Position numbers and translations under genes: made by a program. Positions 14,117 through 46,603 of a DNA stretch of 64,000 nucleotides are shown piece after piece (the stretch's first letter is position 1; each line of letters opens with the position of its first letter). The stretch is taken from positions 104,491 through 168,490 of the forward strand of contig CAIUPP010000021.1 of assembly GCA_903901045.1 (NCBI GenBank). The letters are read 5' to 3'. Under the pieces are notes generated by a model that saw nothing but the letters and a program-made list of their open reading frames with translations, did not search any database and was not told where the DNA came from. The stretch comes from an uncultured Planctomycetota bacterium. GTDB taxonomy: Bacteria; Planctomycetota; Brocadiia; CAIUPP01.

Positions 14117-14308
14117 ATGACCGCGCCGCGCACGACCGGCTGCCTGAAGAAGCTCGACCGGATGAACAAGGCGTTGCGACATGAAGAGCCCGACCGCGTG
14201 CCGATCAGTGACTTCTTCTGGGGCGGGTTCGTCGAGCGCTGGCGGAAGGAGTTGGGGCTGCCGTCGGACGCCTCTTCCGATCTCATTACGACCTCGACTG
14301 GATCGTGA
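14117..14308 (+). pseudogene. N-terminal fragment of a URO-D family gene (frameshifted relative to 14305..15279)
   Basis: MTAPRTTGCLKKLDRMNKALRHEEPDRVPISDFFWGGFVERW carries the URO-D/MtaA N-terminal PDRVP motif. Its frame ends at 14308 while the rest of the domain continues in another frame (…YDLDWIVTVHNMD). Confidence 0.45.
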
Positions 14309-15632: not shown

Positions 15633-15646
15633 CCCTCGGAGGAAAC

Positions 15647-19644: not shown

Positions 19645-19696
19645 CGGGAAGTCTGGGTCCTCTTGTTTGGTCACTTATCGAAGGGAGGGTGCCGTG

Positions 19697-21130: not shown

Positions 21131-21465
21131 TTTACCGACTCAGCCCTAAGCCAAGGAGGCGTGCGGTCTCCCCCTAGGAGGCCGTACGCCCTTCTGGCTC
21201 GGTTCGGCCGGAGCAAGCCGGGGGAGGCAGGCTGGCCGCAACTGGAGATTCCCAAAGCAGAGTTGAATAGAATTGTGACGATGGAGAGTTCGTGCATGTT
21301 GTTGCAGACTCGGAAGTCCCCTCCCGTGTCGCCGTGCGCTGCGACGCTCCTTTGCGGCAGGCTCCGCGGATGGGGGGGCGAACATCGGGGCGTTGGGGGT
21401 GAAAGAGAACTGAACGCCGGGGCCGGGCCGCGCGGCGGCTCGCCCTTCCTGCGCTGATTCTCTCT

Positions 21466-22293: not shown

Positions 22294-22297
22294 CTTC

Positions 22298-25012: not shown

Positions 25013-25064
25013 TTCCCATTTTCCAATCTTCCCGACGACCCTCTTTCCTGAAGGAGAACGGTTC

Positions 25065-28190: not shown

Positions 28191-28258
28191 ACGCGGTGGT
28201 TATAATGTTCGCGTCGGCAGACCCATTTCTTTTACCCGCAATGTGGAGGAAGAACAAG

Positions 28259-30399: not shown

Positions 30400-30402
30400 C
30401 AG

Positions 30403-31590
30403 ATGGGCATCAAAGTCGGCATCTGTGGCGTTGGGGCGTTTGCGAACAACTTCATCCCGCTGTTCAAGGCGCATCCGGAGGTGGCCTCCGTCACCCTATG
30501 CGACCTGGACGCGGCCAAACTCAAGGCGAAGGCGGAGCAATTCGGGATATCCAGGACCTGCCCCTCCCTGGACGAACTGTGCCAGAGCGATGTGGACGCC
30601 ATCGCCGTCATCACGCAGAACTGGATGCACGGTCCGCAGGCGGCGCAGGCGCTCCGGGCCGGCAAGCACGTCTACTCCGCAGTTCCCTCCGCCATCACGA
30701 TGGAGGAGATTGCCGCCCTCGTGCGCGCCGTGGAGGAGACGGGGAAGGTCTACATGATCGGGGAAACCAGCTACTACTACCCCTGCGCCCTCTACTGCCG
30801 CGACCGCTTCCGCAAGGGGGATTTCGGGAGCATCGTGTATGCGGAGGGGGAATACATGCACGACTTCGACCATGGCTTGTACGACGTCTACAAGTGGCGG
30901 GGCGGAGAACGGTGGAAGGAAATTGCCGGGGCTCCCCCCATGCACTACCCCACGCACTCCGTGAGCATGATCGTCTCCGTCACCGGGGCCTACGCCACGC
31001 ACGTCTCCTGCATGGGCGTCGTCGATCACCACGCGGACGGCCTCTTCCGCAAGGGGGTCAACCTGTGGGACAACGAGTTCAGCAACGAGACGGCTCTGAT
31101 GCGCATGTCCGACGGCAGCGTGACCCGGATCAACGAATTCCGGCGCATCGGGCATCCCGGCGAAGTGCGCATGAGCCTGTACGGGACCGCCGGGAGCTAT
31201 GAGGAGCAGTATGGGAACAATATCTGGGTGACCAAGGACCGCGCCTCGTGGCAGGATATCACCGGACTGCTCGAAAGCCGGGGCGTCCCGGCCTCCGAAA
31301 GAAAAGATGCCATGAGCGAGAAAGTGGGGGGGGACGCGGTGTTCGAGGGGCTCTCCCAGGTGCATCAGATCGACCGCCTGCCGAAGGAGTACGCCGGCCT
31401 GCCGAACGGGCATCGCGGCTCGCACCAATACCTCGTGCATGATTTCGTCACGGCCTGCGTGGCGAAGCGCCAGCCGCCGAACAACGTCTGGCAGGCTGCG
31501 CGATATCTTGTGCCGGGGCTCATCGCTCACGAATCGGCCAAACGAAACGGAGAGTTGATGGTGATTCCCGACTTTGGCGGAGGGCGCTAG
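30403..31590 (+). CDS. Gfo/Idh/MocA family oxidoreductase
   Basis: Rossmann motif IKVGICGVGAFAN and EKP-type motif (HVYSAVPSAITMEE). Starts 3 nt after the preceding gene. Confidence 0.85.
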   Translation: MGIKVGICGVGAFANNFIPLFKAHPEVASVTLCDLDAAKLKAKAEQFGISRTCPSLDELCQSDVDAIAVITQNWMHGPQAAQALRAGKHVYSAVPSAITMEEIAALVRAVEETGKVYMIGETSYYYPCALYCRDRFRKGDFGSIVYAEGEYMHDFDHGLYDVYKWRGGERWKEIAGAPPMHYPTHSVSMIVSVTGAYATHVSCMGVVDHHADGLFRKGVNLWDNEFSNETALMRMSDGSVTRINEFRRIGHPGEVRMSLYGTAGSYEEQYGNNIWVTKDRASWQDITGLLESRGVPASERKDAMSEKVGGDAVFEGLSQVHQIDRLPKEYAGLPNGHRGSHQYLVHDFVTACVAKRQPPNNVWQAARYLVPGLIAHESAKRNGELMVIPDFGGGR

Positions 31591-31593
31591 GCC

Positions 31594-32727
31594 ATGGAGA
31601 TGAATATCAGGCAGGAGTACCAGGTCAAGCGCGAGCGCCTGTTGAACGCCATTGAGTTCAAGCCGACGGACCGCTTGCCGATCTGCGGCTTCAACGGCAC
31701 CATCGCCTCGATTGAGCGAATCACCGGGCGAACCGACTACGTGGCGCACGCCAAGGAGGTCTTCACCCAGGCCATGAAGGCATGGGATACCGACCTCGTT
31801 CTGCAATTCGTCCTGCCCGACCGCCAGGACACCACCTGCGGCCCCTATGGCGAATCGAACGCGCGCGGCGGGCTGCTCAGCGTCGTCTACACGCTGTTGG
31901 GCGAATGGTGCCGGAGCCGCGGGCTAATCAAGTCGCCGGAGGCCTTGCGCGACTTCTGCCTTTCGCTGCCCTCCGCCGGTGAGGCGGCGCGAATCGTCAA
32001 TCCGGAGGCCACGCGGCAGACATGGCTGGCGCTGGATGCCTGGGGGGAGTTCCTCAAGCCGATGGTCTGGGTGCCGGGGCATCGCTGCGGCAGCGTCCCC
32101 TGGATGTGGTACACCACCGTCGGTTACGAGAACTACTTGATGGCCCACTCGCTGTACCCGGAGGCGATGGAACGGCTCTTTGCCCTCTGCGGTGAAGAGG
32201 GGCGGCTGCATAACATCGCCATCGCGCAGGCGATCCGGGAACATGGCCTCATCCCGCTGGTCTACTCCGGCGAGGACATCTGCGCCAACGACGGTCCCAT
32301 GTGCTCGCCGAAGGTGCTCCACGAGATCTATTTCCCCCATCTCAAGCGCGCCGTCGAGCCGCTGGCCGAGGCGGGCGTCCACTGGCTCTGGCACAGCGAC
32401 GGCAACATCCTGCCCATCCTGAGCGACCTGCTCGACTGCGGCATCGACGGATTCCAGGGGTTCGAGGAGGACAAGGGGATGGACCTCCTTCAACTTGCCC
32501 GGACTCCCTGCAAGAACGGCCGCCTGCCGTTCCTCTGCGGCAGCGTCAACGTCACCACCACCATGTACACCACGCCGGAGGAAATCGCGAAAGATGTCCA
32601 GCGGATGCTCTCCCTCTCAAAGGCGCGCGGGGGCGGAGTCGTTCTCTGCCCCAGCAGTTCCTTGATGGAGAACATGCCGGTTGAGAATGTCATGACTTTC
32701 TACGAACGCGCTCGCAGTCAGAAATAG
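31594..32727 (+). CDS. URO-D/MtaA family protein
   Basis: N-terminus KPTDRLPICGFNG and C-terminus GGGVVLCPSSSLMENMPVENV are typical of the URO-D family. Starts 3 nt after the Gfo/Idh/MocA gene. Confidence 0.7.
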   Translation: MEMNIRQEYQVKRERLLNAIEFKPTDRLPICGFNGTIASIERITGRTDYVAHAKEVFTQAMKAWDTDLVLQFVLPDRQDTTCGPYGESNARGGLLSVVYTLLGEWCRSRGLIKSPEALRDFCLSLPSAGEAARIVNPEATRQTWLALDAWGEFLKPMVWVPGHRCGSVPWMWYTTVGYENYLMAHSLYPEAMERLFALCGEEGRLHNIAIAQAIREHGLIPLVYSGEDICANDGPMCSPKVLHEIYFPHLKRAVEPLAEAGVHWLWHSDGNILPILSDLLDCGIDGFQGFEEDKGMDLLQLARTPCKNGRLPFLCGSVNVTTTMYTTPEEIAKDVQRMLSLSKARGGGVVLCPSSSLMENMPVENVMTFYERARSQK

Positions 32728-32750
32728 AGCGCCAAAGAAAGGCGAAGAGA

Positions 32751-34052
32751 ATGAAGATGCCGTTTTCAGAATCAGCGCGCAAAGAGCTGGCACTTCGAGG
32801 CCGGCTCAACCTTCGCGCGTCGCAATACCCGGGAAGCAAGACCTCGCCTTACGTGCCTGATGTGAAGGCGGAACTCGTTCGCGTCTGCGAGTGGAGCCTC
32901 TCCAAACAGAATCAGGATGGCGTCTGGCCCATGGAGAAAACGGCCCTGCGGTTCTACGCCGAAGGGTATGCCGTCCGCACTCTCCTGGCCGCCTCCAGGA
33001 TTCTGAGCGAGAAGCGTTACCAGGCGGGGGCCGTGAAATGGGCGCAGTACATCGTCCGCAACCAGCGGCCGGACGGCGGCTATTGGACCGGATACTCCTG
33101 GGGCGATCATGATTTTGCGGGCCCCGAGACGGACAAGACGGTCGTCTATCTGGCCGACGCGGGGGAACTCGGAGCGGCGCTGATTGCCGCGGTTCACGCG
33201 CTCGATGGGAAACCGGAGCATGTGAAAACATGCGAAGCCATTCGCGATTCCCTCCTGCGTTTCCGGACCTTCTGCGATCAGTTCCGGCTGGCCAGCGGCG
33301 CGATCGGCCTGGGGTACACCGAGCGGGATTTCTACCGGCCCCCCGCGGAAATGCGCAACCCGCGCCCCTTCATGCAGGCGCACTATGCCCCCTTCCCCTT
33401 CGCCACCGCCGTCACGGGCGTCGCGCTCCACGCCGCGCTCTATACCGTCACCCGGGACCCCGAGGACTGGCGCAAAGCCATGCAGTCGCTGGACTGGTGC
33501 CTGGAGAATTCCGTCATGTGTGAAGGGGGCTCGCAACTGGCCCACCTGGGCGGAAAACTGGATTTCAAGCATCTTCATCGCGCCCTGGACATTGCCTTTG
33601 CCGCGTCGCCCGCGTCGGAGGAGAAAGCCCCGGGTCCGCAGCAGACCCCAGAGCCGAGATTCGCGGCGCCGGAGCGGCAGAAACTGTATTCACTCTGGAA
33701 GTACTGTCTGCACCTCTTCGCCGACATGCAATCGGACGCCGGCGAATGGTCGCTGCGTGACGAAAAACAGAATGAGATCGCCCTCCATAGCGGCGCGCTT
33801 CGCCACCGGCTTTATCCGCTCTACTCGCTCGTCACGTACCTGGGGCGCATCGGCGCGTTTCCCAAGGAGGATGACGCGCTCGTCGAGGCGTGCGCGCGCC
33901 AACTCTGGTTGTGCGCGGACCCGGTTATCCTCAGCGACCATTACGGCGTCTGCGCCGAGCTCGACGACCTCTGCGTCATGCCCACAGGCCTGTGGGGAAT
34001 GACGCTGTGCGAGCTGCTCCAGCCGGGAGTGACTTTGCCACGCCGCACGTGA
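32751..34052 (+). CDS. (alpha/alpha)-toroid protein with prenyltransferase/squalene-oxidase-like repeats (possible unsaturated glycuronyl hydrolase-like)
   Basis: Repeated Q-x2-DG-x-W motifs (QNQDGVWP, NQRPDGGYWTGYSW). No signal peptide is evident. Confidence 0.5.
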   Translation: MKMPFSESARKELALRGRLNLRASQYPGSKTSPYVPDVKAELVRVCEWSLSKQNQDGVWPMEKTALRFYAEGYAVRTLLAASRILSEKRYQAGAVKWAQYIVRNQRPDGGYWTGYSWGDHDFAGPETDKTVVYLADAGELGAALIAAVHALDGKPEHVKTCEAIRDSLLRFRTFCDQFRLASGAIGLGYTERDFYRPPAEMRNPRPFMQAHYAPFPFATAVTGVALHAALYTVTRDPEDWRKAMQSLDWCLENSVMCEGGSQLAHLGGKLDFKHLHRALDIAFAASPASEEKAPGPQQTPEPRFAAPERQKLYSLWKYCLHLFADMQSDAGEWSLRDEKQNEIALHSGALRHRLYPLYSLVTYLGRIGAFPKEDDALVEACARQLWLCADPVILSDHYGVCAELDDLCVMPTGLWGMTLCELLQPGVTLPRRT

Positions 34053-34100
34053 AGTGCGAAACTGGCCCGGTATTTCCGCTGTCCACCGAAAAGGGACTCC

Positions 34101-35153
34101 ATGACGGACAAGGAAAACCTGCTTCGATGCATCCGGTTCGAGACCCCGGATCATATTCCCGTCTCCTTCCAGATCAACCCCGCCTGCTGGCAACACTATG
34201 ACCAGGAGGCGCTCAAGGACTTGATGGAGAGCCACAGGCTTCTCTTCCCGCACTACCAGAGGCTGGCGGGCAAGGTGACGCCGGCGTTCCTGCCCAACGC
34301 CCGCGCCGATCGGCCCTACACCGATCCGTGGGGCTGCGTCTGGATGACCGCCGACGACGGCATCACCGGCGCCGTCCATGGCCATCCGTTGCCGGACTGG
34401 GAGCGGTTCGCCCAATACCGCGCTCCAGACCCAGAGACGAGCGACGGCACGTATCCGATCGACTGGAAGGAAATCGCCGCGGGCGTCCGCGAGGCCCGGG
34501 CGGCGGGCGAGGTGGTCTGGGGAGGCCTGCCGCACGGTCACACCTTCCTTCGCCTGCAGGACATCCGCGGCTACGTGAACCTCCTGATGGACATGGCCGA
34601 CGACCACCCGAACCTCCCGAAGCTGATCGGCATGGTGGAGGAGTTCAATTACCGCTTCGTGACGAAATGGATGCAACTGGAGCCCGACGTTTTCGGGTAC
34701 GCCGAGGATCTGGGCATGCAGGTGGGGCCGATGCTTTCCCCCGCGCAGTTCCGGAAATACATCAAGCCGGTGTATCAGCGGCTGATGAAACCGGCCCGCG
34801 ACCGGGGCTGCATCGTGCAAATGCACTCCGACGGCGATATCCGCTCCCTGGCTGACGACATGATCGATGCCGGCGTGGAGGTGGTGAACCTGCAGGACCT
34901 GGTCAACGGCATCGACTGGATCGCTCAGCGGTTCGCCGGGAAAGTCTGCGTTCAACTGGATATCGACCGGCAGAGTGTGACGCGCTTCGGCGCGCCCGCG
35001 GAAATTGACGCCCTCATCCGCGAGGAGGTGGAAAAGCTCAGCACCTCCCGTGGAGGACTCATGCTGATCTTCGGCATGTATCCCGGCCTGCCGCTCGAGA
35101 ACGCCAGGGCGCTCATGGACGCCATGGAGCGGTACAGCGTTCTGCACGCCTGA
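34101..35153 (+). CDS. URO-D/MtaA family protein
   Basis: N-terminus LLRCIRFETPDHIPVSF and the family pattern through the C-terminus (GGLMLIFGMYPGLPLENA). Confidence 0.75.
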   Translation: MTDKENLLRCIRFETPDHIPVSFQINPACWQHYDQEALKDLMESHRLLFPHYQRLAGKVTPAFLPNARADRPYTDPWGCVWMTADDGITGAVHGHPLPDWERFAQYRAPDPETSDGTYPIDWKEIAAGVREARAAGEVVWGGLPHGHTFLRLQDIRGYVNLLMDMADDHPNLPKLIGMVEEFNYRFVTKWMQLEPDVFGYAEDLGMQVGPMLSPAQFRKYIKPVYQRLMKPARDRGCIVQMHSDGDIRSLADDMIDAGVEVVNLQDLVNGIDWIAQRFAGKVCVQLDIDRQSVTRFGAPAEIDALIREEVEKLSTSRGGLMLIFGMYPGLPLENARALMDAMERYSVLHA

Positions 35154-35341: not shown

Positions 35342-35370
35342 TTGACTGATTGATTGCGACCGGTTATGAT
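35342..35370 (+). promoter_or_regulatory. sigma70-like promoter TTGACT-17nt-TATGAT, with a second TATGATCA copy 24 nt downstream
   Basis: TTGACT at 35342-35347, a 17-nt spacer, then TATGAT at 35365-35370. A direct repeat of TATGATCA lies at 35389. RBS AAGGAG precedes the ATG at 35407. Confidence 0.5.
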
Positions 35371-35406
35371 CACATCAATCATTCGGCCTATGATCAAGGA
35401 GCGCAC

Positions 35407-36549
35407 ATGCGAGAGATCGGCGTGGGCATAATCGGGTTCGGCCTGATGGGGCGTGTGCACGCGTATGGCTATCGCACGCTGCCATTTTTCTTCGATCCCG
35501 CCCCGGCGCGCATCCGGCTCGTGGCGGTGTGCGACGCCCGGCGCGAGGTGGCGGAGAAGGCGAAGGATCAGTTCGGCTTCGAGTTTGCGGCCAGCGACCC
35601 TCTGGAGGTGATTTCCCGCGACGACATCCAGGTCGTGGACATCTGCACCCCGAACCAGTTTCATAAGGAGGGGTTGCTTGCTGCGATCAAGGCGGGCAAG
35701 CATATCAACTGCGACAAGCCGATCACCGGCAGTTGGGCCGATGCGCAGGAAATCGGGCGGGCGCTCAAGGGGTATTCCGGCATCGGGCACATGGAACTGA
35801 ACAGCCGCTTCATCCTCCCCGCCCTGCGCGCCGCGCAGTTGATTCAAGAGGGGTTCCTGGGGCAGGTGACGCAGTTCCGCGCCGGGTATTACCATGCCGG
35901 GAGCATCGACCCGAAGAAGCCGATCGGCTGGAAGCAGGAGGCGGCGGCCGGCGGCGGGGTGATCAATGACCTGGCCAGCCACGTGGTCGATGTGATGGAG
36001 TGTCTGGTCGGACCGATTGCGGCGGTGCGCGTGGAGAGCCAGATTCTGTATCCTCAGCGGCCCGACGCCGGCGGGAAGCTCGTTCGCGTCGAGGCGGAGG
36101 ATGCCGTGACCATCCAGCTCAGGCTTCGCGACGGCGGCATGGGGCTGATCGAAGCGTCTAAAATCGCCACCGGGACCAACGACGAGATTCGCGTGGAAAT
36201 CCACGGGCGGCGCGGCGCCGTGCGTTTCAACTCCATGGAGCCCAACTACCTGGAGATCTACTCCGCCCTCGACGCCGAGGAGCCGCTGGGGGGCCTGCGG
36301 GGCTGGCGGCGCGTGGATACGGTGAACCGCTTTGCCAAGCCCGGCGGCTGGCCCGGTCCGAAATTCGCCATCGGCTTCCTCAGGTCGCACGTCCAGTGCC
36401 TCTACAACTTCGTCAGCGCCGTAGCCGAGAACCGCAAAGTCCGCCCCTCCCTGGAGGATGGCATCCGGCTGCAGTACCTGCTTGAAGAAGTGCGCGCAAG
36501 CGCCGCCGACGGCGCGTGGCACAAGATCGCCGAGGCGACTCCATGCTGA
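35407..36549 (+). CDS. Gfo/Idh/MocA family oxidoreductase
   Basis: ATG at 35407 after AAGGAG. Motifs MREIGVGIIGFGLMGRVHA and AGKHINCDKPI. The longer upstream ORF would overlap the promoter. Confidence 0.85.
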   Translation: MREIGVGIIGFGLMGRVHAYGYRTLPFFFDPAPARIRLVAVCDARREVAEKAKDQFGFEFAASDPLEVISRDDIQVVDICTPNQFHKEGLLAAIKAGKHINCDKPITGSWADAQEIGRALKGYSGIGHMELNSRFILPALRAAQLIQEGFLGQVTQFRAGYYHAGSIDPKKPIGWKQEAAAGGGVINDLASHVVDVMECLVGPIAAVRVESQILYPQRPDAGGKLVRVEAEDAVTIQLRLRDGGMGLIEASKIATGTNDEIRVEIHGRRGAVRFNSMEPNYLEIYSALDAEEPLGGLRGWRRVDTVNRFAKPGGWPGPKFAIGFLRSHVQCLYNFVSAVAENRKVRPSLEDGIRLQYLLEEVRASAADGAWHKIAEATPC

Positions 36550-37313
36550 ACGAGTCCCCGCAGGAGCGGGTGGGACGCATCATGGACCGTCTGCGCGCCG
36601 GCAGCGTTTCCGTGCGGGACCTTGCCCGCGACATGGGCGTCTCCGAGATCACGATCCGCCGCGATCTGGCGTCGCTGAAGCGCGACGGGAAACTGCTCCG
36701 AGTCTACGGGGGGGCGATTCCGAAGGAGCGCGTCGCCTACGAGTTCTCCTTCAAGGAAAAGGAATCGCTCCACCGCGCGGAAAAGGAATCCATCGGGCGC
36801 GCGGCGGCGGGGCTGGTCGAGCCAGGCGCGGCCGTCTTCCTGGACACCGGCACCACCGCGGTCGAAGTGGCGCGCGCATTGCGCGGCAGAACGCCGGGAG
36901 TGATCGTCACCGTCAACTTGTGCGTGGCCTCCGAATACGTCGGGCAGGAGCGCGTGCGCGTGATCATGCCCGGAGGCGAACTGGGCCGGCGCTCCCCGGA
37001 CCTGCTGGGGGAGTTGACGCTGCAGACGCTCTCGCAGATGACGGTGGACGTGGCGTTCCTGGGATGCGACAGCGTCGACCCGGCCAGGGGGTTCTATGCG
37101 GCGGACTTGCGCAGCGCGGCCGTCAGCCGGCTGATGCTGGAGCAGAGCCGCCGCGCCTTCCTCATCGCCGATAGCAGCAAATTCGGCCGGCGCGCCATGG
37201 TGCGCATCGCCCCTGTGGGCCGGCTGGCTGGGATCATCACGGACGCCGGTCTCGCGCGGCCGCACCGCGCGGCTCTCCGGCGCGCCGGCGTACGGGTTGT
37301 GACTCAGGACTGA
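36543..37313 (+). CDS. DeoR family transcriptional regulator
   Basis: DeoR HTH (SVRDLARDMGVSEITIRRDLASL) and DeoR C-terminal sugar-phosphate-binding domain (VFLDTGTTAVEVA…FLGCDSVD). Overlaps the upstream gene by 7 nt. Confidence 0.8.
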   Translation: MLNESPQERVGRIMDRLRAGSVSVRDLARDMGVSEITIRRDLASLKRDGKLLRVYGGAIPKERVAYEFSFKEKESLHRAEKESIGRAAAGLVEPGAAVFLDTGTTAVEVARALRGRTPGVIVTVNLCVASEYVGQERVRVIMPGGELGRRSPDLLGELTLQTLSQMTVDVAFLGCDSVDPARGFYAADLRSAAVSRLMLEQSRRAFLIADSSKFGRRAMVRIAPVGRLAGIITDAGLARPHRAALRRAGVRVVTQD

Positions 37314-37320
37314 AGAACTC

Positions 37321-37419
37321 GAAGCTGGTTCAAAACTGTGGCGTGGGTTATCAAACCCGCGAGAAATATAGCGCGGACTGGTTAGTCCGCGCCACCTGTC
37401 GAGTTTTGAAACAGCTTCT
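37321..37419 (+). promoter_or_regulatory. structured RNA leader: long imperfect inverted repeat enclosing two perfect hairpins
   Basis: Outer arms GAAGCTGGTTCAAAACTGTGGCG and CGCCAC…GAGTTTTGAAACAGCTTC. Inner hairpins GGGTT-atca-AACCC and GCGCGGACT-ggtt-AGTCCGCGC. Followed by RBS AGGAGG and the ATG at 37443. Confidence 0.45.
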
Positions 37420-37442
37420 CGTCATTCCATAGGAGGTGAACG

Positions 37443-38813
37443 ATGTCCGCATCATGGTGGAAGAAGGGACTTGGGGACGTTCCCCGCATGGTATGCGCCG
37501 CGCCGGGGCCGAAATCGCAGGAGTTGCACGCGCGCGCCGCGAAAATCATGAAGGGGTACTCCTCGCAGGTGAAGCTTTTCCCGGTCTGTTTCAAGGAGGG
37601 GTTTGGCGTCACTCTGACCGACGTGGACGGCAACAAATACATCGACTTCTCCAGCGGCATCTACGTGACCACGCTGGGACATTGCCACCCGAAAATCTCG
37701 GAAGCCGTGGCGCAGGCCGCGAAGACCCTGATGAATTGCCACGATTTCACCACGCCGGTCAAGACCACGCTGCTCGAAAAGCTCGTCGACATATTGCCCA
37801 GGGGGCTTGGCGGCGTGCAGTTGTACGATAGCGGAACCACCGCGGTGGAGGCGGCTGTCCGCATCGCCCGCGCCGCCAGCGGCAAGAGCGAGTTCCTCTC
37901 CTGCTTCCGCGACTTCCACGGCAAGAGCGGTCATGCCGTGAGCTTGGCCCGGATGAACAAGACCAACGGCTCGGGGCGGACGCAGGGCTTTTATATGCTT
38001 CCCCGTCCCGACCCGTACCGCCCGCTTTGGACCTTGCCGAACGGGGCGATTGACACCGACGCTTATTTCCGCTTCTACGATGAGTTCATCCTCGAAGCCA
38101 CCACGAATCAGGTTGCCGCCATCGTCCTGGAACCGATTCAGGGATGGGCCGGCTCCATCTTCCCGCCGGAGGACTTCTTTCCGAAGCTCCGGAAGTGGTG
38201 CGATGCGAAGAAGATTCTCTGGGTGGATGACGAGGTGCTCACCTGCATGGGGCGCACCGGCAAGTTCCTCTGCGCCGAGCATTGGGGCGTAACGCCCGAC
38301 ATCGTCACCCTGGGCAAGGGGTTCGGCAACGGCTTCCCCGTGACCGCGGTGGTCTGCCGGGAGGAACTCAAGGAGAGCTTCGAGAAGATCAGCGCCTCGA
38401 CCTCGTACGGCGGCAACCCGATGGCCTGCGCGGCGGCGCTGGCCTCCATCGAAGTCATCCTTGAGGAAAAACTTCTTGAAAACGCGGCGATGCTGGAGAA
38501 GTTCTTCCTCAAGCGGCTCGCGAAAATGAAGGCGGCGCATCCGATCGTTGGCGACGTGCGCTGCAAGGGGTGCCTCATGGGCGTGGAACTGGTCAAGGAC
38601 CGCGCCACCAAGGAGCCCTTCGACGAAGCGGGCAAGCTCGTGTATCAGAAGGCGTTCGCGAAGGGGCTCGCCTGGATTCCCGCCGGCCACATTCTGCGCA
38701 TGAGCCCGCCGATCATCATGGACGAGAAGATCGCGGGCAAGGCGATGGACATCATTGACGAGGCCATCGGCGAGACCGAGGCCGAACTTGGGTTCAAAGG
38801 AGGACGTTCATGA
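37443..38813 (+). CDS. class III pyridoxal-phosphate-dependent aminotransferase
   Basis: Typical AT-III architecture. The lysine in TLGKGFGNGFPV is the candidate PLP-binding residue. 456 aa. Confidence 0.85.
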   Translation: MSASWWKKGLGDVPRMVCAAPGPKSQELHARAAKIMKGYSSQVKLFPVCFKEGFGVTLTDVDGNKYIDFSSGIYVTTLGHCHPKISEAVAQAAKTLMNCHDFTTPVKTTLLEKLVDILPRGLGGVQLYDSGTTAVEAAVRIARAASGKSEFLSCFRDFHGKSGHAVSLARMNKTNGSGRTQGFYMLPRPDPYRPLWTLPNGAIDTDAYFRFYDEFILEATTNQVAAIVLEPIQGWAGSIFPPEDFFPKLRKWCDAKKILWVDDEVLTCMGRTGKFLCAEHWGVTPDIVTLGKGFGNGFPVTAVVCREELKESFEKISASTSYGGNPMACAAALASIEVILEEKLLENAAMLEKFFLKRLAKMKAAHPIVGDVRCKGCLMGVELVKDRATKEPFDEAGKLVYQKAFAKGLAWIPAGHILRMSPPIIMDEKIAGKAMDIIDEAIGETEAELGFKGGRS

Positions 38814-39580
38814 CCGGCAAGCAGATCCGATTCAACAAGCTTTTTGGCGGCAAGCGCAACGCCGCGCTGGTGGCGGTGGATCACGGGGCGGAGTTCGGCC
38901 CGACGCCGGGGCTGATGGACTTCCCCGCGGCCCTGGAGAATCTGGGCGGCGCCGACGCCATCCTGCTCAACCCCGGCATGGTGGGGCAGGCGGCGGGGTT
39001 CTTCAGCCGTCCGGAAGCTCCCAGGATGGTGCTGCGTGTCACTTGGACGACCGCCTACTGCTTCCCCTTCAACTACCGCGAGTCGCACACGGCGCAGGTC
39101 ATCGGCGCGCAGGAGGCGTTGGGCGCCGGCGCGGACTTCATCATGGCCTGCTGCCTCCTGCAGTCCGGCAGCGAGCAAGTGGATCGCGAGAATGTTAAAC
39201 TGTTCGCCGACGTGGTCGCGCAGAAAGAGAAGGCGGGGATTCCGCTGATCGGCGAACTGTTCCCCGTGGACGCCGAGACGATGCCGCCGGAGGAATTGCA
39301 CATGCGGGTCTACCGCGGCTGCCGCATCCTGGCGGAACTGGGTGCGGACGCGATCAAGACGTTCTACACCGGCGAGCGGTTCCACGAAGTGGTGGAAGGC
39401 GCTTCCGTGCCGGTGCTGGCGCTGGGCGCGAGCAAGTGCTCCGAGCCGGAGGCGCTCGCCAAGGCGCGCAAGTCCATGCAGGCCGGCGCGCGCGGCGTGG
39501 TCTTCGGGCGCAATGTCTTCCAGGCGAAAGCGCCCGCGAAGTTTCTGTCGCAACTCGCATCGGTTGTTCACAAGGGCTGA
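38810..39580 (+). CDS. DhnA-type class I aldolase (DeoC/LacD family; LsrF/FbaB-like)
   Basis: 256 aa. The lysine in GADAIKTFYTG is the candidate Schiff-base lysine. Overall pattern of archaeal-type class I FBP aldolase / LsrF. Overlaps the aminotransferase stop by 4 nt. Confidence 0.7.
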   Translation: MTGKQIRFNKLFGGKRNAALVAVDHGAEFGPTPGLMDFPAALENLGGADAILLNPGMVGQAAGFFSRPEAPRMVLRVTWTTAYCFPFNYRESHTAQVIGAQEALGAGADFIMACCLLQSGSEQVDRENVKLFADVVAQKEKAGIPLIGELFPVDAETMPPEELHMRVYRGCRILAELGADAIKTFYTGERFHEVVEGASVPVLALGASKCSEPEALAKARKSMQAGARGVVFGRNVFQAKAPAKFLSQLASVVHKG

Positions 39581-39583
39581 GGC

Positions 39584-40654
39584 GTGGATATCCCTCTTCA
39601 CCATGTTTTCAATTACACCGACGTGGACCGCGCTTTCTGGGCGGAGCACCTGGAGGCGTGGGTCCCGAAGGAGATCGTGGACGCGCACGTCCACGTCACC
39701 AATCCGGCCTTCCAACGCGAGAAGCCGAGCGAGGATCGCCGTCGGAGTTTCTGGGTGATGGAGGTGCTGGAGCCGCAGGACGCGGACTCCCTCGCGCGCT
39801 GCTACGCCATCCTCTACCCGAACCGGAACGTCTCGCTGCTTGGGTTCGGCTTCCCCGACCTCTCATACGACACCGCGGGGCAGAATGAATACGTCTCGCG
39901 CCAGTGCGTTGCGCGCGGCTGGCACGGGCTGGCCGTCAGCGACCCGCACTGGACGACCTCCGAGTGCGAGCGCGTCCTGGCGCTCCCGGGCATCATCGGG
40001 TTCAAGCCGTACTACGAAATGATCGGCAAATCCGATTCGACGCGCGACGCGCACCTGGAATCGAGCATCTTCGACTTCCTTCCCCATCCCCAGTTGGAAT
40101 TGCTCAACGACCGCGGGGCGTGGGTCACCCTGCACGTGCCGCACGCGGACCGGCTGGGCCACCCTCAGAACATACGCGAAATTCAGGAGATCCGCCGCCG
40201 CTACCCGAAGCTCCTGCTGGTGATCGCCCACCTGGGCCGCAGCTACACCGAGCCTCACGCGCTGGAGGGGATCACGCCGCTGGCGGCGGACAAGGGACTG
40301 TACTGGGACAACTGCGCCGTGCTCAACCCGGCGGTTCACCGTATCGCCCTTGAAAAAATCGGCCCGGAGAACATCCTGTACGGCACGGACAACCCCGTCT
40401 TCTACATGCGCGGGCGACGCCAGTGGCGCGGGCGCAGCTACATCAACCGCACGAGCCACCCCTTCCATTTCAACAAGGAACGGGAGGCGCCGGAAATCGA
40501 AGCAGGTTACACTCTGTACATGTACGAGGCGCTGAAGGCGCTCAAGGAGGCCTGCGCCGGCCTGGGGCTGGCGCGCGCCCAGGTCGAGGCGCTCCTGGGG
40601 GGCAATGCGCGCCGGCTCATCCGCCGTGTGGCCGAAGCCAAAAGGAGAGCGTGA
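39584..40654 (+). CDS. amidohydrolase_2 family metal-dependent hydrolase (TIM barrel; sugar-lactonase/decarboxylase-like)
   Basis: HxH metal motif (DAHVHV) near the N-terminus and a conserved His/Asp pattern (LHVPHAD, GTDNP). Confidence 0.7.
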   Translation: MDIPLHHVFNYTDVDRAFWAEHLEAWVPKEIVDAHVHVTNPAFQREKPSEDRRRSFWVMEVLEPQDADSLARCYAILYPNRNVSLLGFGFPDLSYDTAGQNEYVSRQCVARGWHGLAVSDPHWTTSECERVLALPGIIGFKPYYEMIGKSDSTRDAHLESSIFDFLPHPQLELLNDRGAWVTLHVPHADRLGHPQNIREIQEIRRRYPKLLLVIAHLGRSYTEPHALEGITPLAADKGLYWDNCAVLNPAVHRIALEKIGPENILYGTDNPVFYMRGRRQWRGRSYINRTSHPFHFNKEREAPEIEAGYTLYMYEALKALKEACAGLGLARAQVEALLGGNARRLIRRVAEAKRRA

Positions 40655-42063
40655 TGCGACGCAACGTCATGAAGCCCAAGGTTGGAATTCTCGCGCTGAC
40701 CCTTGAACTGTACGAAACGCTGGCCCCGGGCCTGCGGCAGGACCGCGTGCGATGGGTGCGGCGCGACCTGCTGCCGGCGCTGACGCCGGTCGCGGAGGTT
40801 CTCTTCGACAAGCCCTGTTTCCGGCGCGAGGAAGTGGAGGGGTGCGTCGCGCGGATGGAGGCGCAGGGGGCCGACGCCTTGCTGGTGCTACTGTTGACCT
40901 ATTCCCCCAGCTTGATCGCGCTGCCCGCCCTGCAGCGCACGCGGTTGCCCATTCTCATCTGGAACACCCAGCAGTTATGGGCGGTGGATGAGAAGTTCGG
41001 CGCCCCGGAGATGATCGCCAATCACGGCGTCCACGGCACGCAGGACCTCGCCAACGTCTTGCTGCGCAGCGGCGTGAAGTTCGAATACACCACGAGTCAT
41101 TCCTCGGACCCCGCCGCGCTGGAGGTCATCCGCGATTTCCTCTCCGCCTCGGCGGCGGTCAACCGGCTGCGCCGCTCGCGCATCGGGATGTTGGGGTACC
41201 CCTTCCCCGGCATGGGCGATTTCGGGCTGGACACCACCCACATGACGGCCACGCTCGGCTGCGAATGGACGCAACTGCCCATTGAGGAGTACCTGCTTCG
41301 CGCCGAGAAGGCCTCCGCGCGCGACGTGACCGCGCTGGTGGGGGAGTACCGCCGCGCCTACGCGGTCGCCCCCAACGTGAAGAAGACGGACCTGGATGCG
41401 ACGGCGCGAGTGGAACTGGCCCTGCGGGGTATGGTCGAGGAGCGCAAGTTGAGCGCGCTGACCTACCAGTTCACGGCGTTCGGCGAGGACGAGCGCACCC
41501 CGACGGTGCCGTTCGTCGCGGCGAGCCGCCTGATGGCTGAGGGGATCGGCTTCGGCGGCGAGGGAGACCAGATCGCCGCCGCCGGGACGAGCCTGCTGAA
41601 CTGGCTCGCCCCGCCTGCCACCTTCTCCGAAATCTTCACGATCGATTTCGCAGGGAACGCGCTCTTTATGAGCCACATGGGAGAGGCGAACGTCGCCATG
41701 GCGCGCAAGGACTGCCCCACGCCGTTGCGCGCGCGCGGCAGCGCGATCACGCGCACCCGGCGCGGTCAGCTTGCGCTGGCGGTCAGCCTGGAGCCGGGGC
41801 CGGCCACGCTGTTCGCGCTCACTTCGGGGCCGGCGGGGAAGTGGCGCTTCGTCGTCTCGCCGATGACGATCCTGGATTATCCCATCCTCGATGAGTTCCC
41901 CTGCCCGCACTTCAAGATTGCGCCCGCCGGCGACGTGCGCGACTTCCTCACCGCGTACGCGAAGGCGGGCGGCCCGCACCACAACGCTCTCTGCTTCGGC
42001 GATGCCCGCGGCCGGCTGCGGCAGGCGGCGCGATTGCTGGATGCGGATTATTTCGAGGTCTGA
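40654..42063 (+). CDS. L-arabinose isomerase / L-fucose isomerase superfamily protein
   Basis: The ATG overlaps the upstream stop (ATGA). N-terminus KPKVGILALTLELY and overall AraA-like pattern, ~470 aa. Confidence 0.65.
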   Translation: MRRNVMKPKVGILALTLELYETLAPGLRQDRVRWVRRDLLPALTPVAEVLFDKPCFRREEVEGCVARMEAQGADALLVLLLTYSPSLIALPALQRTRLPILIWNTQQLWAVDEKFGAPEMIANHGVHGTQDLANVLLRSGVKFEYTTSHSSDPAALEVIRDFLSASAAVNRLRRSRIGMLGYPFPGMGDFGLDTTHMTATLGCEWTQLPIEEYLLRAEKASARDVTALVGEYRRAYAVAPNVKKTDLDATARVELALRGMVEERKLSALTYQFTAFGEDERTPTVPFVAASRLMAEGIGFGGEGDQIAAAGTSLLNWLAPPATFSEIFTIDFAGNALFMSHMGEANVAMARKDCPTPLRARGSAITRTRRGQLALAVSLEPGPATLFALTSGPAGKWRFVVSPMTILDYPILDEFPCPHFKIAPAGDVRDFLTAYAKAGGPHHNALCFGDARGRLRQAARLLDADYFEV

Positions 42064-42109
42064 TACGACTGATCCGCCGGATCCGTCCTATCTGCCGGAG
42101 AGGCCCGTC

Positions 42110-43564
42110 ATGTTTATCGGCTTGGACTTGGGAACCACGAACGTCAAAGCGCTGCTGGTGACCCCGCAAGGGCGCGTGCTGGCGCGCGGCGCGGCGCCCA
42201 TTCCGCTTCACCGGCGGCCCGACGGCGCGGTGGAGCAGGAGATCGAGGAGATTTGGAACGCCACGCAGACGGCCATGCGCCAGGTGGGCAGCCACCCCCG
42301 CGCCCGCGACGTGCGCGCGATCGGGGTCTCAAGCCAGGGTGGGGCGATGCAGCCGCTTGACGCGGCGGGCGCGCCGGCCGGCCGCGTCATCAGTTGGCTG
42401 GATGGCCGTGGCGCGCCTTACGACCGGCAGATGGAGCGGCGGCTGGGCCTGGACTGGTTCCCTGCGCACATCGGCTTCGGCATGAGCGGCGTGTCCATCG
42501 GCCAATGCCTGCGGTTGCGCCAGGAGCAGCCGGGCCTGCTCGACTCCCCGCGCCGCATCGGCTACGTCGGCGACGTGATCGTCTCGCGCCTCTGCGGACG
42601 CCCCGCGCATGACGCCACGTCGCTCTCCATCGCCATGCTTTACAACCCCGCGCTCGGCGACGCGGATGCCGGACTGCTGCGCGAGCTGGGCCTGGAGAAA
42701 GCGCAACTGCCGCCGCTCCTCTCGCCGCGCGACTCGGCGGGCCCTCTCCGCGCGGAGGCGGCCCGCGAATGGTCCCTGCCCTCGGGCATCCCGGTCTCTC
42801 CCGCGGTGCACGACCAGTATGCGGCGGCGCTCGGGGCGGGAGTGACCGAGCCGGGCGACATGATGTTCGGCGCGGGGACCGCCTGGGTCTTGTTGGCCAT
42901 GACGGAGCGGCTCGCGCTCCCCGTTATCCCGCAGGCGATTGTCTGCCGCCATGTGGCGGAAGGAGTGTACGGCCAGATGCTGTCCATGGGGAACGGCGGC
43001 TCCTCTTTCAAGTGGGCGCTCGAACTGATCGGTCGGCCTCACGCCTGCCGCGAGGAGGTAGACGCGCTACTCAACGCCGTCCCGGCCGGAAGCGACGGCC
43101 TGCTGTTTCGTCCGCAGCTTGCGCCGTCTCAGGCGGCGGGAATGCCCGCCGGCCTGCGGGGCGGAATGGAGGGACTGCGCCTGTCCCACACCCCGGCGCA
43201 CCTGCTGCGCGCCGTCCTGGAAGGGCTGAGCCTGGAGTTGGCGCGGTACCTGGCGCTGCTGAACGGCGGGGGTATCCCCGTGCGGCGGCTGGCGCTGTGC
43301 GGCGGGGCCGCCGGCAGCGCGGTCACTCCGCAACTCGTCGCCGACGCCGTGGGCCTGCCGGTTTCATGCGTCGCGGAACCTGAGATGAGCGCGTTTGGGG
43401 CGGCGGTCATCGCGCGGGGGCTTGTGGAGCCGGGGCAATCGCTGGCCGACGTGGCGCGCTCCATGCCGGTCGAGGCCCGTCTTCTCAACCCCGGCGGGAA
43501 CCGGGCGGCGTATCAGGCGCTCTTCACGCGTTATCTCGCGCGGCTCAAAGCCGCCGCCGAGTGA
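42110..43564 (+). CDS. FGGY family carbohydrate kinase (xylulo/ribulo/rhamnulo/fuculokinase-like)
   Basis: N-terminal MFIGLDLGTTNVKA (FGGY signature 1) and C-terminal GGAAGSAV…FGAAVIA (signature 2 region). Confidence 0.85.
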   Translation: MFIGLDLGTTNVKALLVTPQGRVLARGAAPIPLHRRPDGAVEQEIEEIWNATQTAMRQVGSHPRARDVRAIGVSSQGGAMQPLDAAGAPAGRVISWLDGRGAPYDRQMERRLGLDWFPAHIGFGMSGVSIGQCLRLRQEQPGLLDSPRRIGYVGDVIVSRLCGRPAHDATSLSIAMLYNPALGDADAGLLRELGLEKAQLPPLLSPRDSAGPLRAEAAREWSLPSGIPVSPAVHDQYAAALGAGVTEPGDMMFGAGTAWVLLAMTERLALPVIPQAIVCRHVAEGVYGQMLSMGNGGSSFKWALELIGRPHACREEVDALLNAVPAGSDGLLFRPQLAPSQAAGMPAGLRGGMEGLRLSHTPAHLLRAVLEGLSLELARYLALLNGGGIPVRRLALCGGAAGSAVTPQLVADAVGLPVSCVAEPEMSAFGAAVIARGLVEPGQSLADVARSMPVEARLLNPGGNRAAYQALFTRYLARLKAAAE

Positions 43565-44534: not shown

Positions 44535-45689
44535 ATGAATGCAATAAAAGGACATAAGGCCATGACCGGACGGCAGCGGCAATTGGACACGTTGCTTTTC
44601 AGGCAACCGGACCGCATTCCTCTGGTCCCCGGCGGCGGGCGTCAGTCGACGCGCGAGGCGTGGTATCGCCAGGGGTTGCCCCGCGACGTCAAGGACATTC
44701 CGCAGTACGCCTATCGCCAGGCCGGCGGCAAGCTCGATTGGCCCACGGGCGGGCCGGGGTTCATCACAGCCGAGCGGATGATCCCCATGTTCGAAGAGAA
44801 GGTGATCGAGCGCAAAGAGCGCTCGCAGATCGTACAGGACTGGAAAGGGAACATCTGCGAGATCGGCAACGAGTTCACGACGGAGTACCTGCGCAACGCG
44901 CTGGACTTCGTCACGCGGCGGTGGGTCAAGTGCCCCGTCGAGAACGCCGCCAATTGGGAGGAGATGAAACGGCGCTATGATCCGAATACTCCGGAACGCC
45001 TTCCGGCGGACGCCGCGACCCTGGGACCGAGCCTGGCGAACCGCGAGCACTACATCGCCATTAACTTCTCGGGTCCCTTCTGGCAACTCCGGGAGTGGTG
45101 CGGATTCGAGCCGCTCTGCGTCATGCTCTACGACAACCGGCCCCTGGTGATGAAGATGCTGACGTTCTGGGAGGAGTACGTCTCGCAATTGCTGGAGCGG
45201 ACCTTCCGCTGCTTCATCCCGGACGAAGTGCATCTCTCCGAGGACATGGCGTACAAGAGCTTTTCGATGATTTCGCCCGCGATGACGCGCGAACTGCTCC
45301 TCCCCATGTACAAGCGGTGGGGGGCGATGGTCCGCAAGGCCGGCGTGCCGATTTACGCGATGGATTCCGACGGCTACGTCGGCGAACTGATCCCGATGTG
45401 GTTGGAAGCAGGCATCAACGTCTGCGATCCGATCGAGGTGGCGGCAGGAAACGACATCGTCGCCTTTCGCAAGGAGTTCGGAAAAGACATGGCCTACCGC
45501 GGCGGCGTGGACAAGCGCGCAATCGCGAAGGGGGGAGATGCAATCCTGGAGGAAATGCGGCGCATCGAGCCGGTAATCAGCGGCGGCGGCTGTATTCCCA
45601 GTTGCGACCACGGCGTGCCGTCGGATGTCTCCTGGCCCAATTATGTGCGGTTCACCGGGTTGCTGGCAAAGGCGACCGGTTGGCTCTAG
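44535..45689 (+). CDS. URO-D/MtaA family protein
   Basis: N-terminus LLFRQPDRIPLVPGGG and C-terminus GGGCIPSCDHGVPSDVSWPN, 384 aa. Confidence 0.75.
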   Translation: MNAIKGHKAMTGRQRQLDTLLFRQPDRIPLVPGGGRQSTREAWYRQGLPRDVKDIPQYAYRQAGGKLDWPTGGPGFITAERMIPMFEEKVIERKERSQIVQDWKGNICEIGNEFTTEYLRNALDFVTRRWVKCPVENAANWEEMKRRYDPNTPERLPADAATLGPSLANREHYIAINFSGPFWQLREWCGFEPLCVMLYDNRPLVMKMLTFWEEYVSQLLERTFRCFIPDEVHLSEDMAYKSFSMISPAMTRELLLPMYKRWGAMVRKAGVPIYAMDSDGYVGELIPMWLEAGINVCDPIEVAAGNDIVAFRKEFGKDMAYRGGVDKRAIAKGGDAILEEMRRIEPVISGGGCIPSCDHGVPSDVSWPNYVRFTGLLAKATGWL

Positions 45690-45947: not shown

Positions 45948-46586
45948 TTGGCGAAAGTGCGCAAGAAGCAGGTGCGGGATGCGGAGGGAAGCCGGAGGAG
46001 GCTTCTTGAGGCGGGGCTCAAGGTGTTCTCCGAGCGCGGCCCGGCCGGCGGGTCGGTCTCCATGATTGCGCGCGAGGCCGGCATCAATCGCCGGATGCTC
46101 TACCACTACTTCGGGAGCAAGGAAGGTCTCTATCGCGCCGCGTTTCGCCACGCCTACGAGCAGTTATCCTTCGCGGAGATCGGCCTCGCCGACATGGCGT
46201 TGAGCGCCGAGGAACTCCTGGCGCGTTTGATCCGGCACTATGCCGAGTTCCATGCCACGCACCCGCACCACGTGCGGCTGCTGATGTGGGAAAATTTGCG
46301 GCAAGGGAAGGCGGCCAGAGAGTTGCACATCGGCGACATCAAGGCGCCGATCATGGAAGCGCTGCGCGCCGCCCTCGACCGGGGCAGGCGCGAAGGGCGC
46401 TTCCGGGCCGACGTCGATGAGCGGCGGCTGCTCATCAGTTGCATGGCGCTGAGCTTCTTCTGCCACTCGAACCGCTACACCATCGCCGAGGCGCTCGGCA
46501 GCGACCTGGGGGACGGGGAAGTGGCCAGGGCGCAGGTCGAGCACAATGTCAAGATGGTCCTGGATGGAATCCGCACCCGAGGCTGA
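45948..46586 (+). CDS. TetR/AcrR family transcriptional regulator
   Basis: HTH (VSMIAREAGINRRMLYHYFGSKEGLY). The tool ORF starts at a GTG at 45927, which lies inside the -10. TTG at 45948 or GTG at 45957, after the SD, are more plausible starts. Confidence 0.75.
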   Translation: MAKVRKKQVRDAEGSRRRLLEAGLKVFSERGPAGGSVSMIAREAGINRRMLYHYFGSKEGLYRAAFRHAYEQLSFAEIGLADMALSAEELLARLIRHYAEFHATHPHHVRLLMWENLRQGKAARELHIGDIKAPIMEALRAALDRGRREGRFRADVDERRLLISCMALSFFCHSNRYTIAEALGSDLGDGEVARAQVEHNVKMVLDGIRTRG

Positions 46587-46603
46587 GTCAAGGAGCGACG
46601 ACG

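Follow-up and report, generated by a model that had tools for sequence, protein, structure and literature searches.

In the E. coli L-fucose regulon (FucI-FucK-FucA, with the regulator FucR) and in araBAD, an isomerase of the AraA/FucI superfamily and an FGGY kinase are combined with a third enzyme that acts on the ketose phosphate. We describe here an operon with these three functions, located at positions 35407-43564 of a 64,000-nucleotide stretch of DNA (hereafter, the window) from an uncultured Planctomycetota bacterium (GenBank assembly GCA_903901045.1, contig CAIUPP010000021.1). In general terms it resembles familiar sugar-catabolic operons, but its enzyme set is an unassigned one. As in the fucose regulon, a DeoR-type regulator accompanies the enzymes, and the isomerase keeps the catalytic and metal-binding residues of AraA. 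In contrast to both systems, the isomerase shares only 24% identity with E. coli AraA, the kinase resembles XylB, the aldolase belongs to class I and not to the class II type of FucA, RhaD and AraD, and the operon adds a class-III aminotransferase, a Gfo/Idh/MocA oxidoreductase and an Amidohydro_2 protein. We propose that the operon is part of a widespread, previously undescribed gene cluster that catabolises an amine-bearing sugar, a proposal to which we attach slightly less than even confidence.

Other described systems resemble parts of this gene set. The lsr genes for autoinducer-2 processing (LsrK, LsrG, LsrF) and the archaeal ADH synthase MJ0400 likewise bring together an FGGY kinase and a DhnA-type Schiff-base enzyme, but the window aldolase scores far below the corresponding cut-offs, no LsrG-type isomerase is found and the AraA-like isomerase would act on a free sugar. 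Sulfo-EMP sulfoglycolysis has, like the window, an isomerase, a kinase, a class I aldolase of the DeoC/LacD family (YihT), an oxidoreductase and a DeoR repressor (CsqR), and SftI, the isomerase of the sulfo-TAL pathway, is a weak full-length match to the window isomerase (33.6 bits against a cut-off of 700). Unlike sulfoglycolysis gene clusters, the window contains neither a sulfoquinovosidase nor a sulfonate exporter, its kinase is of the FGGY and not the PfkB type, and the aminotransferase and the Amidohydro_2 protein are present. Couples of a Gfo/Idh/MocA dehydrogenase and an aminotransferase that work between hydroxyl, ketone and amine on the sugar ring are known from NtdC/NtdA (kanosamine), WbpB/WbpE and GnnA/GnnB, and in the cluster described here an oxidoreductase of this family and a pyridoxal phosphate (PLP) aminotransferase are similarly encoded side by side. 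The known couples are biosynthetic, have sugar-phosphate or nucleotide-sugar substrates and use DegT-type aminotransferases, whereas the aminotransferase here is of class III and appears in a context of catabolic aspect, with importer, isomerase, kinase and aldolase.

Canonical amino-sugar catabolism (NagK/NagA/NagB; AgaK/AgaA/AgaS/KbaYZ with AgaR) shares with the window a DeoR-family regulator, a kinase, a final aldolase and a possible deacylase of the amidohydrolase superfamily, and abundant amino sugars would be the candidate substrates. It differs in that the window has no SIS-type or NagB-type deaminase; nitrogen would instead be lost by transamination followed by keto-reduction. To our knowledge, the textbook amino-sugar routes all rely for nitrogen removal on deaminases of the NagB or AgaS type, which use the 6-phosphate as substrate. 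A literature search of incomplete coverage returned no description of the gene set or of a transaminase-based amino-sugar catabolism, and a 2025 review of amino-sugar pathways mentions no route made of a transaminase and keto-reduction (PMC12118421).

Gene order and enzyme families of the operon

Seven consecutive open reading frames (ORFs) with high third-position GC lie on the plus strand at 35.3-43.6 kb. Head to tail from 5' to 3', they encode a Gfo/Idh/MocA oxidoreductase (GFO, 35407..36549), a DeoR-family transcriptional regulator (DeoR, 36543..37313), a class-III aminotransferase (AT, 37443..38813), a DhnA-type aldolase (ALD, 38810..39580), an Amidohydro_2 protein (AH2, 39584..40654), an AraA-like isomerase (ISO, 40654..42063) and an FGGY-family kinase (FGGY, 42110..43564). 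The GFO reading frame opens at 35350, with a probable ATG start at 35407 after an AAGGAG ribosome-binding site (RBS). A preliminary description of this DNA had listed the six genes from DeoR to the kinase at 36543-43564; the ORFs and their families confirm that list and its coordinates, but the description omitted the GFO gene. Since the GFO stop (36549) overlaps the ATG of DeoR in the sequence ATGCTGA, the unit starts one gene earlier and comprises seven genes.

Junctions were read directly from the sequence. AT and ALD overlap by 4 nt in a common ATGA, the ALD stop lies 3 nt before the GTG start of AH2 as previously described, and the TGA of AH2 overlaps the ATG of ISO by 1 nt. A 46-nt gap, first ascribed to the amidohydrolase and the kinase, in fact separates ISO from FGGY. 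The earlier statement that most genes overlap or are tightly spaced holds for most junctions and fails for the 129-nt gap between DeoR and AT. Terminator-like sites are not enriched within the unit (5 found, 8.7 expected from shuffled sequence). Most likely, 35407-43564 is one DeoR-controlled catabolic operon of seven genes, the catabolic direction and the regulation being read from the gene content.

Families were assigned by Pfam and NCBIfam profile searches and membership was judged by the curated equivalog cut-offs. None of the seven proteins reached an NCBIfam equivalog cut-off, and all missed widely; alignments nevertheless show intact catalytic residues in ISO, ALD, AT and AH2. The original characterization of the locus as a compact, same-strand, DeoR-associated isomerase/kinase/aldolase sugar operon with non-canonical enzymes therefore stands. 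More specifically, ISO carries the domains PF24856 (AraA_central) and PF11762 (Arabinose_Iso_C) and scores 93.6 bits with the AraA equivalog NF002795, for which the cut-off is 622. Residues E306, E333, H350 and H450 (E. coli AraA numbering), which we take to be the catalytic Glu pair and the metal-binding His pair of AraA, are invariant in an alignment of ISO, E. coli AraA and five family members. These domains and residues place ISO in the AraA/FucI-type superfamily of metal-dependent aldose-ketose isomerases.

The kinase has FGGY_N and FGGY_C domains and is nearest to XylB (TIGR01312, 211 bits, cut-off 380), followed by FucK (116 bits, cut-off 471) and RhaB (41-42 bits, cut-offs 528-639); its best match in the PDB is E. 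coli xylulokinase 2itm (134 bits). ALD matches PF01791 (73 bits) and, among subfamilies, PRK07226 (148 bits, cut-off 241), while ADH synthase (115 bits, cut-off 299), the LsrF thiolase (102 bits, cut-off 297) and archaeal fructose-bisphosphate aldolase (102 bits, cut-off 430) remain below threshold. Among solved structures, MJ0400 (89 bits) is the nearest, followed by LsrF (70 bits). The Lys in the DAIKTFYTG segment of ALD aligns with the IKT Schiff-base Lys of both proteins, and a GRNVFQ loop is retained. By its Schiff-base Lys and phosphate-binding loop, ALD is classed as a DhnA-type class I aldolase of the DeoC/LacD family. An Aldolase_II protein (the FucA/RhaD/AraD class) was found neither among the seven genes nor among the ~46 window ORFs scanned.

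These profiles bear on the substrate that had been put forward first, L-fucose or L-rhamnose. A phosphorylative 6-deoxyhexose pathway in which a class I aldolase replaces FucA/RhaD and AT aminates lactaldehyde would require an isomerase, a kinase and an aldolase, and all of them are present. However, at E <= 1e-3 neither Pfam nor NCBIfam gives a FucI or RhaA family for ISO, XylB is a nearer relative of the kinase than FucK or RhaB, and no lactaldehyde-handling or bacterial microcompartment genes occur among the window ORFs scanned. We consider this pathway improbable, also in view of the comparison with related loci given below.

AT has the predicted fold of a class-III aminotransferase (Aminotran_3, 323 bits), scoring 357 bits with PRK05769 (cut-off 552) and 266 bits with GabT TIGR00700 (cut-off 507); its best PDB matches are 7vno and 9wqz (~260 bits). 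The residues at E. coli GabT K268, the PLP Lys, and D239, the Asp that faces the pyridine nitrogen, are conserved in AT as in 39 of 39 ATs of the cluster. An Arg equivalent to GabT Arg398 is also kept, while the carboxylate-binding Arg141 is replaced by Lys and Glu211 by Trp. GFO combines the Pfam GFO_IDH_MocA domain with C-terminal domains and aligns over its full length with levoglucosan dehydrogenase NF052479 (250 bits, cut-off 650).

AH2 matched no NCBIfam family and appears to represent a novel Amidohydro_2 subfamily of metal-dependent enzymes. By fold its top match is L-fuconolactonase, which may be counted in favour of a 6-deoxyhexose substrate. Comparison with the Amidohydro_2 lactonases (COG3618) and decarboxylases (ACMSD/IDCase/LigW) gave no clear preference for one of these subgroups. 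In alignments, AH2 retains the metal ligands HxH, His, His and Asp, together with one invariant Lys that ends strand 4 and seven invariant Arg. The ligand pattern resembles that of binuclear amidohydrolases, and AH2 probably acts on a phosphorylated intermediate. Candidate reactions are N-deacylation (as in the NagK/NagA logic), epimerisation or isomerisation, and cleavage after oxidation, and we make no choice between them.

Conservation of the cluster across phyla

The isomerase family search gave 1107 significant matches, the best 120 of which are mostly 63-70% identical. A scan of one genome per species found 153 relatives; the best 80 loci all come from metagenome-assembled genomes, nearly all labelled Planctomycetota or Verrucomicrobiota (labels taken as given). 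To these best 80 of the 153 we added five related loci found earlier, and ORFs were called and clustered in the resulting 85 loci, 33 of which are fully flanked, that is, extend at least 7 kb either side of ISO. ISO was recovered in 79 of the 85 loci and, as the selection criterion for these, in all 33 fully flanked ones. The corresponding counts are 72/85 and 29/33 for FGGY, 60/85 and 25/33 for AH2, 49/85 and 25/33 for GFO, 44/85 and 22/33 for AT, 37/85 and 18/33 for a sodium:solute symporter (SSF), 32/85 and 11/33 for ALD, and 16/85 and 6/33 for DeoR. ORF calling was crude, so that antisense ORFs displaced some true genes; AH2 in particular is undercounted, with an antisense ORF in its place in at least three loci.

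Same-strand adjacencies are frequent: ISO is followed by FGGY in 66 cases, FGGY by AH2 in 44, AH2 by GFO in 22 and ALD by ISO in 21, with 13 each for SSF before AT and AT before ISO and 12 for AT before GFO. Adjacent pairs usually overlap or almost touch. This arrangement goes beyond chance neighbourhood, and its conserved core is ISO-FGGY-AH2(-GFO), around which GFO, class-III AT, SSF, ALD (in only about one third of loci) and DeoR recur. Two types of GFO are found in these positions: orthologues of the window GFO (46-50% identical) sit between AT and ISO in nine related loci, and a second type usually lies 3' of AH2. The symporter is of the sugar type (YidK-like, 312 bits). In a Pfam census, the 117 remaining flanking genes included no further family in more than three loci and no consistent glycosidase or partner from which the substrate could be named, so that the module seems to be self-contained.

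Side genes were nonetheless seen in a few loci. In three verrucomicrobial loci (L024, L048, L066), a secreted amidase resembling neutral/alkaline ceramidases is encoded directly 5' of the symporter, and a GNAT acetyltransferase adjoins the cluster in L011, L039 and L073. Both hint at N-acyl or amine chemistry of the substrate.

The same loci offer a test of the genes cited for a 6-deoxyhexose, a rhamnose mutarotase gene (rhaM, 15291-15632, 107 bits) and a GH95-like gene (11040-14102, 97 bits). Both genes exist in the window as described, but they lie 21-25 kb upstream of the operon, past another regulator gene, and do not travel with the cluster: a rhaM homologue is found in 0 of 85 related loci and a GH95-like gene gave one weak match. 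We therefore rejected their link to the operon. With FucI and RhaA unmatched, the kinase nearest to XylB and these two genes not conserved, positive evidence for L-fucose or L-rhamnose is lacking. Distant AraA-like genes, ~25% identical, do end a rhamnose ABC-transporter operon on a plasmid of Deinococcus sp. AJ005 (L095), which can be read in favour of rhamnose, and an AraC-regulated sugar ABC operon on a plasmid of Rhizobium sp. NZLR1 (L094). These two cases suggest that AraA-like paralogues are common beyond araBAD.

The aminotransferases of the cluster fall into three lineages, type A, which includes the window copy, and two type-B lineages. Type A proteins are 63-68% identical to the window copy, and their nearest relatives are archaeal transaminases resembling γ-aminobutyrate (GABA) aminotransferase and amino-acid racemases. 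Type B proteins are ~20% identical to type A, a level at which alignments are uncertain, and their best matches (putrescine aminotransferase, PigE, daptide aminotransferase and aminopentol aminotransferase) are amine and not amino-acid transaminases. Orthology of all cluster ATs was considered and rejected, given this divergence and the presence of both types in one locus (L089). Type A co-occurs with the aldolase in 6 of 7 loci and type B in 1 of 14. The AT, which is found in 22 of the 33 fully flanked loci, usually adjoins the transporter, GFO or ISO, and it is integral to the cluster and not a passenger. Since different PLP enzymes were independently recruited into one slot, a step between amine and carbonyl would be part of the pathway. 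As 15 of the 22 AT-containing clusters have no aldolase, amination of lactaldehyde, one of two roles initially suggested for the enzyme, is unlikely to be its general function, and the 6-deoxyhexose pathway loses further ground. The other suggestion, catabolism of an amino-deoxy sugar, is favoured by the frequency of AT, by its three lineages and by its occurrence in Firmicutes, as described next.

A related cluster was identified in gut Oscillospiraceae. A tblastn search of plasmid and assembly records found an isomerase of Subdoligranulum variabile that is 32% identical to ISO. It belongs to a block at 4064-12111 of locus L093 (OY725846.1), unannotated in the record, that encodes GFO, a class II aldolase, FGGY, ISO, an Aminotran_3 protein and a second GFO. 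The aldolase is a class II ketose-bisphosphate aldolase (PF01116; TIGR00167, 244 bits, cut-off 215.6). The same block occurs on three Oscillospiraceae contigs (L096-L098), in L097 without the class II aldolase. Genes for an ABC importer and its large binding protein are divergent from the block, and a LacI regulator with a trio of PfkB, HpcH/HpaI and 2-hydroxyacid dehydrogenase genes lies near it. SASA-type esterase, BNR and DHDPS-family genes were also observed beside it. This isomerase clade is abundant in metagenomes, where one cluster has 923 member sequences and another 1097, and the block is very abundant in metagenomes of the gut.

AH2 is absent from the Firmicute version. The Firmicute AT and second GFO are 50-53% identical to the copies of the Planctomycetota-Verrucomicrobiota-Chlamydiota (PVC) group, compared with ~30-33% for ISO and FGGY. 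The PVC and Firmicute versions thus have ISO, FGGY, AT and GFO in common, and the aldolases that they have added belong to different classes. The isomerase-kinase-aldolase logic recognized at the outset is supported by this independent recruitment of a class II aldolase. Being common to the versions of both phyla, AT and GFO are as central as isomerase, kinase and aldolase.

A candidate route for an amine-bearing sugar

We propose the following order of steps. An amine-bearing sugar (an amino-deoxy sugar, possibly N-deacylated first) would be imported; a symporter accompanies the cluster elsewhere, and none was found in the window by tblastn. With a 2-oxo acid as acceptor of the amino group, AT would yield a keto sugar, which GFO would reduce to an ordinary aldose. 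ISO, as an AraA-like enzyme of the Mn type, would convert the aldose to a ketose, which the XylB-like kinase would phosphorylate and ALD would split into a triose phosphate and an aldehyde. AH2 would act on an anionic, probably phosphorylated, intermediate, either as a hydrolase (e.g., an N-deacylase) or as an epimerase/isomerase, and DeoR would repress the operon until a sugar phosphate builds up. The route can be divided into an upper module (AT and GFO, from amine sugar via keto sugar to aldose) and a lower module (ISO, FGGY and ALD). This division is suggested by related loci in which AT and GFO are often grouped with the transporter in a sub-operon of their own, and by the closest relative, L006 (ISO 84% identical), where ALD-AH2-ISO-FGGY follows GH42, GH36 and GH172 genes and AT is absent. 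Sugar catabolism is indicated by the importers and the repressors, both of which are of the sugar type. By analogy, 2-, 3- or 4-amino-deoxy sugars such as galactosamine are candidate substrates.

Stated in full, this would be a new amino-sugar route consisting of de-amination by a class-III transaminase, reduction of the keto sugar by a Gfo/Idh/MocA enzyme, an AraA-like isomerase, an FGGY kinase and aldol cleavage, to which PVC bacteria add an AH2 step on the phosphosugar. We put forward this complete sequence of reactions tentatively, as a possibility that is more doubtful than the amine-bearing sugar as such. Several observations weigh against catabolism of an amine-bearing sugar. No enzyme falls in a characterised orthologue group, and the substrate is deduced from sequence. 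AH2 has no explained role, yet it is linked to ISO-FGGY more tightly than either AT or the aldolase. In one third of the related loci, AT is missing from the surrounding 7-10 kb, and the substrate of the core may thus be a neutral sugar. The type-A AT of the window is similar to amino-acid transaminases and racemases, has retained the alpha-carboxylate-binding Arg and co-occurs with the aldolase; for these reasons it could act on a substrate or product of the aldolase rather than on an amino sugar. Finally, this operon contains no transporter.

The first alternative is a pathway for a neutral sugar or sugar acid, built on the ISO, FGGY, GFO and AH2 core, with AT handling a carbonyl side product or a side entry. 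GFO and AH2 would then be a dehydrogenase and a lactonase, or AH2 would serve as a decarboxylase or C-C hydrolase on a phosphorylated keto sugar. ISO-FGGY-AH2(-GFO) is indeed the most conserved block, with genes overlapping by 4 nt, and AT is missing from 11 of the 33 fully flanked loci. An FGGY kinase followed by a decarboxylase (Ula/Yia) and a dehydrogenase followed by a diketo-hydrolase (LRA5/LRA6) are known logics that would fit. However, the Pfam census found no aldonate dehydratase or other aldonate-consuming enzyme conserved nearby, the Firmicute version lacks AH2 yet retains AT and two GFOs, and AT and GFO are the best conserved pair between the phyla. On balance we regard a neutral substrate as rather unlikely; the core of isomerase, kinase and AH2 would even then be an undescribed pathway.

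A biosynthetic direction was considered as well, in which a ketose phosphate is transaminated, dephosphorylated (perhaps by AH2), oxidised by GFO and cyclised to an aminopolyol or iminosugar. This deoxynojirimycin-type logic has a precedent in GabT1/Yktc1/GutB1, and the cluster holds a class-III AT, a dehydrogenase and a possible phosphohydrolase, while ISO and FGGY could provide the ketose phosphate and the aldolase is dispensable in many loci. Nevertheless, the cluster is associated with importers (SSF, or ABC plus a binding protein) and with repressors of the sugar type (DeoR, LacI), two phyla have independently recruited an aldolase of class I or class II, glycosidase genes precede the lower module in L006 and no exporter is conserved. 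Such a biosynthetic role is very improbable.

If catabolism of an amine-bearing sugar by transaminase and reductase is true, it would constitute a new way to mine carbon and nitrogen, and a widespread one, reaching from Planctomycetota and Verrucomicrobiota of soil, water and sediment to abundant human-gut Oscillospiraceae. Amino sugars make up a substantial share of soil organic nitrogen and of gut host glycans, and the cluster occurs in phyla known for the degradation of complex polysaccharides. Functions would also be gained for large families, namely AraA-like isomerases automatically named 'L-arabinose isomerase', a clade of Amidohydro_2 and two divergent clades of class-III AT; searches with these families gave from >800 to 1300 significant matches each among 8000 candidates scored. 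Because the cultured gut bacterium Subdoligranulum variabile bears a related cluster, the question is directly testable.

Regulatory region and genomic surroundings

The DeoR protein is assigned by its domains (HTH_DeoR, 45.9 bits; DeoRC, 155.7 bits) to the DeoR family of repressors, which typically respond to sugar phosphates. Its best NCBIfam match is AgaR (194.6 bits, cut-off 260), and FucR follows with 94 bits against 259. The AgaR match was rejected as evidence for galactosamine because it is too weak and several DeoR subfamilies score similarly. A promoter-like sequence, TTGACT-17-TATGAT (35342..35370, plus strand), precedes the first gene; it was found by consensus scan with 10 of 12 matches and represents a consensus match only. 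Two direct copies of TATGATCA on the plus strand (35365-35372 and 35389-35396) lie over its -10 hexamer and the 5' leader. In 9 of 16 related loci that contain DeoR, a relative with one mismatch (TATGAACA/TGTTCATA) occupies the -10 position of the deoR promoter. In related planctomycete loci with divergent deoR and ALD, the spacer contains a TGTTCAAAC-TGAACA palindrome, and TGTTCATACT lies at the -10 of a TTGACA promoter.

The 129-nt spacer between DeoR and AT (37314..37442, plus strand) is highly structured. An outer inverted repeat (37312-37337 / 37402-37427) has 26-nt arms, each with GTTCAAAAC, a half-site that resembles the TGTTCAAAC-TGAACA palindromes of the related loci. Nested within it are two inner hairpins (37338-37361 / 37372-37395), with one perfect 9-bp stem, and an AGGAGG RBS precedes the AT gene. 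The minimum free energy of the predicted RNA is -57.5 kcal/mol, compared with -37.7 +/- 3.6 for shuffled sequences (z = -5.5). A search of Rfam for riboswitches or other known RNAs returned no match for the spacer at E <= 1, and the central hairpin (37371-37392) has no second copy within the window. We infer that the TATGATCA copies and the GTTCAAAAC pair are candidate operators for DeoR, perhaps in combination with an RNA element; the spacer could be an operator, an element of mRNA processing or stability, or a novel cis-regulatory RNA.

GFO paralogues and URO-D-like genes are the only other window genes that are found repeatedly next to the ISO cluster elsewhere. The window holds six URO-D/MtaA-like paralogues, two of which flank the operon: five are recognized by Pfam (14305-15279, 15533-16702, 31594-32727, 34101-35153 and 50409-51599) and a distant sixth (44535-45689) is related to the gene at 15533 with E = 1e-12. 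None of the window ORFs scanned with Pfam could be recognised as a gene for a corrinoid protein. URO-D-related families (clusters c16 and c20) and the second GFO type adjoin the ISO cluster in L018, L025, L035, L041, L072 and L089. Directly 5' of the operon, at 29338-35153, five tightly packed genes on the same strand encode an unknown 353-aa protein, a GFO, a URO-D-like protein, an unknown 433-aa protein and a second URO-D-like protein. Because the cluster is accompanied elsewhere by parts of this block, the functional island may begin as early as ~29.3 kb.

Further away, a cassette is repeated three times (1331-14102, 18433-29296 and, on the minus strand, 61666-54389). It contains a regulator with a GntR-type HTH and a LacI-type periplasmic-binding domain, a DUF1559 protein with an N-terminal methylation motif, and giant Laminin_G_3/beta-helix/GH-like proteins, and looks like a PVC-style polysaccharide-utilisation arrangement. 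On the 3' side of the operon, a gene at 46439-49261 encodes a large fusion protein (DHO_dh, Fer4_20, Pyr_redox_2 and Fer4; dihydropyrimidine-dehydrogenase-like) and adjoins a TetR regulator gene.

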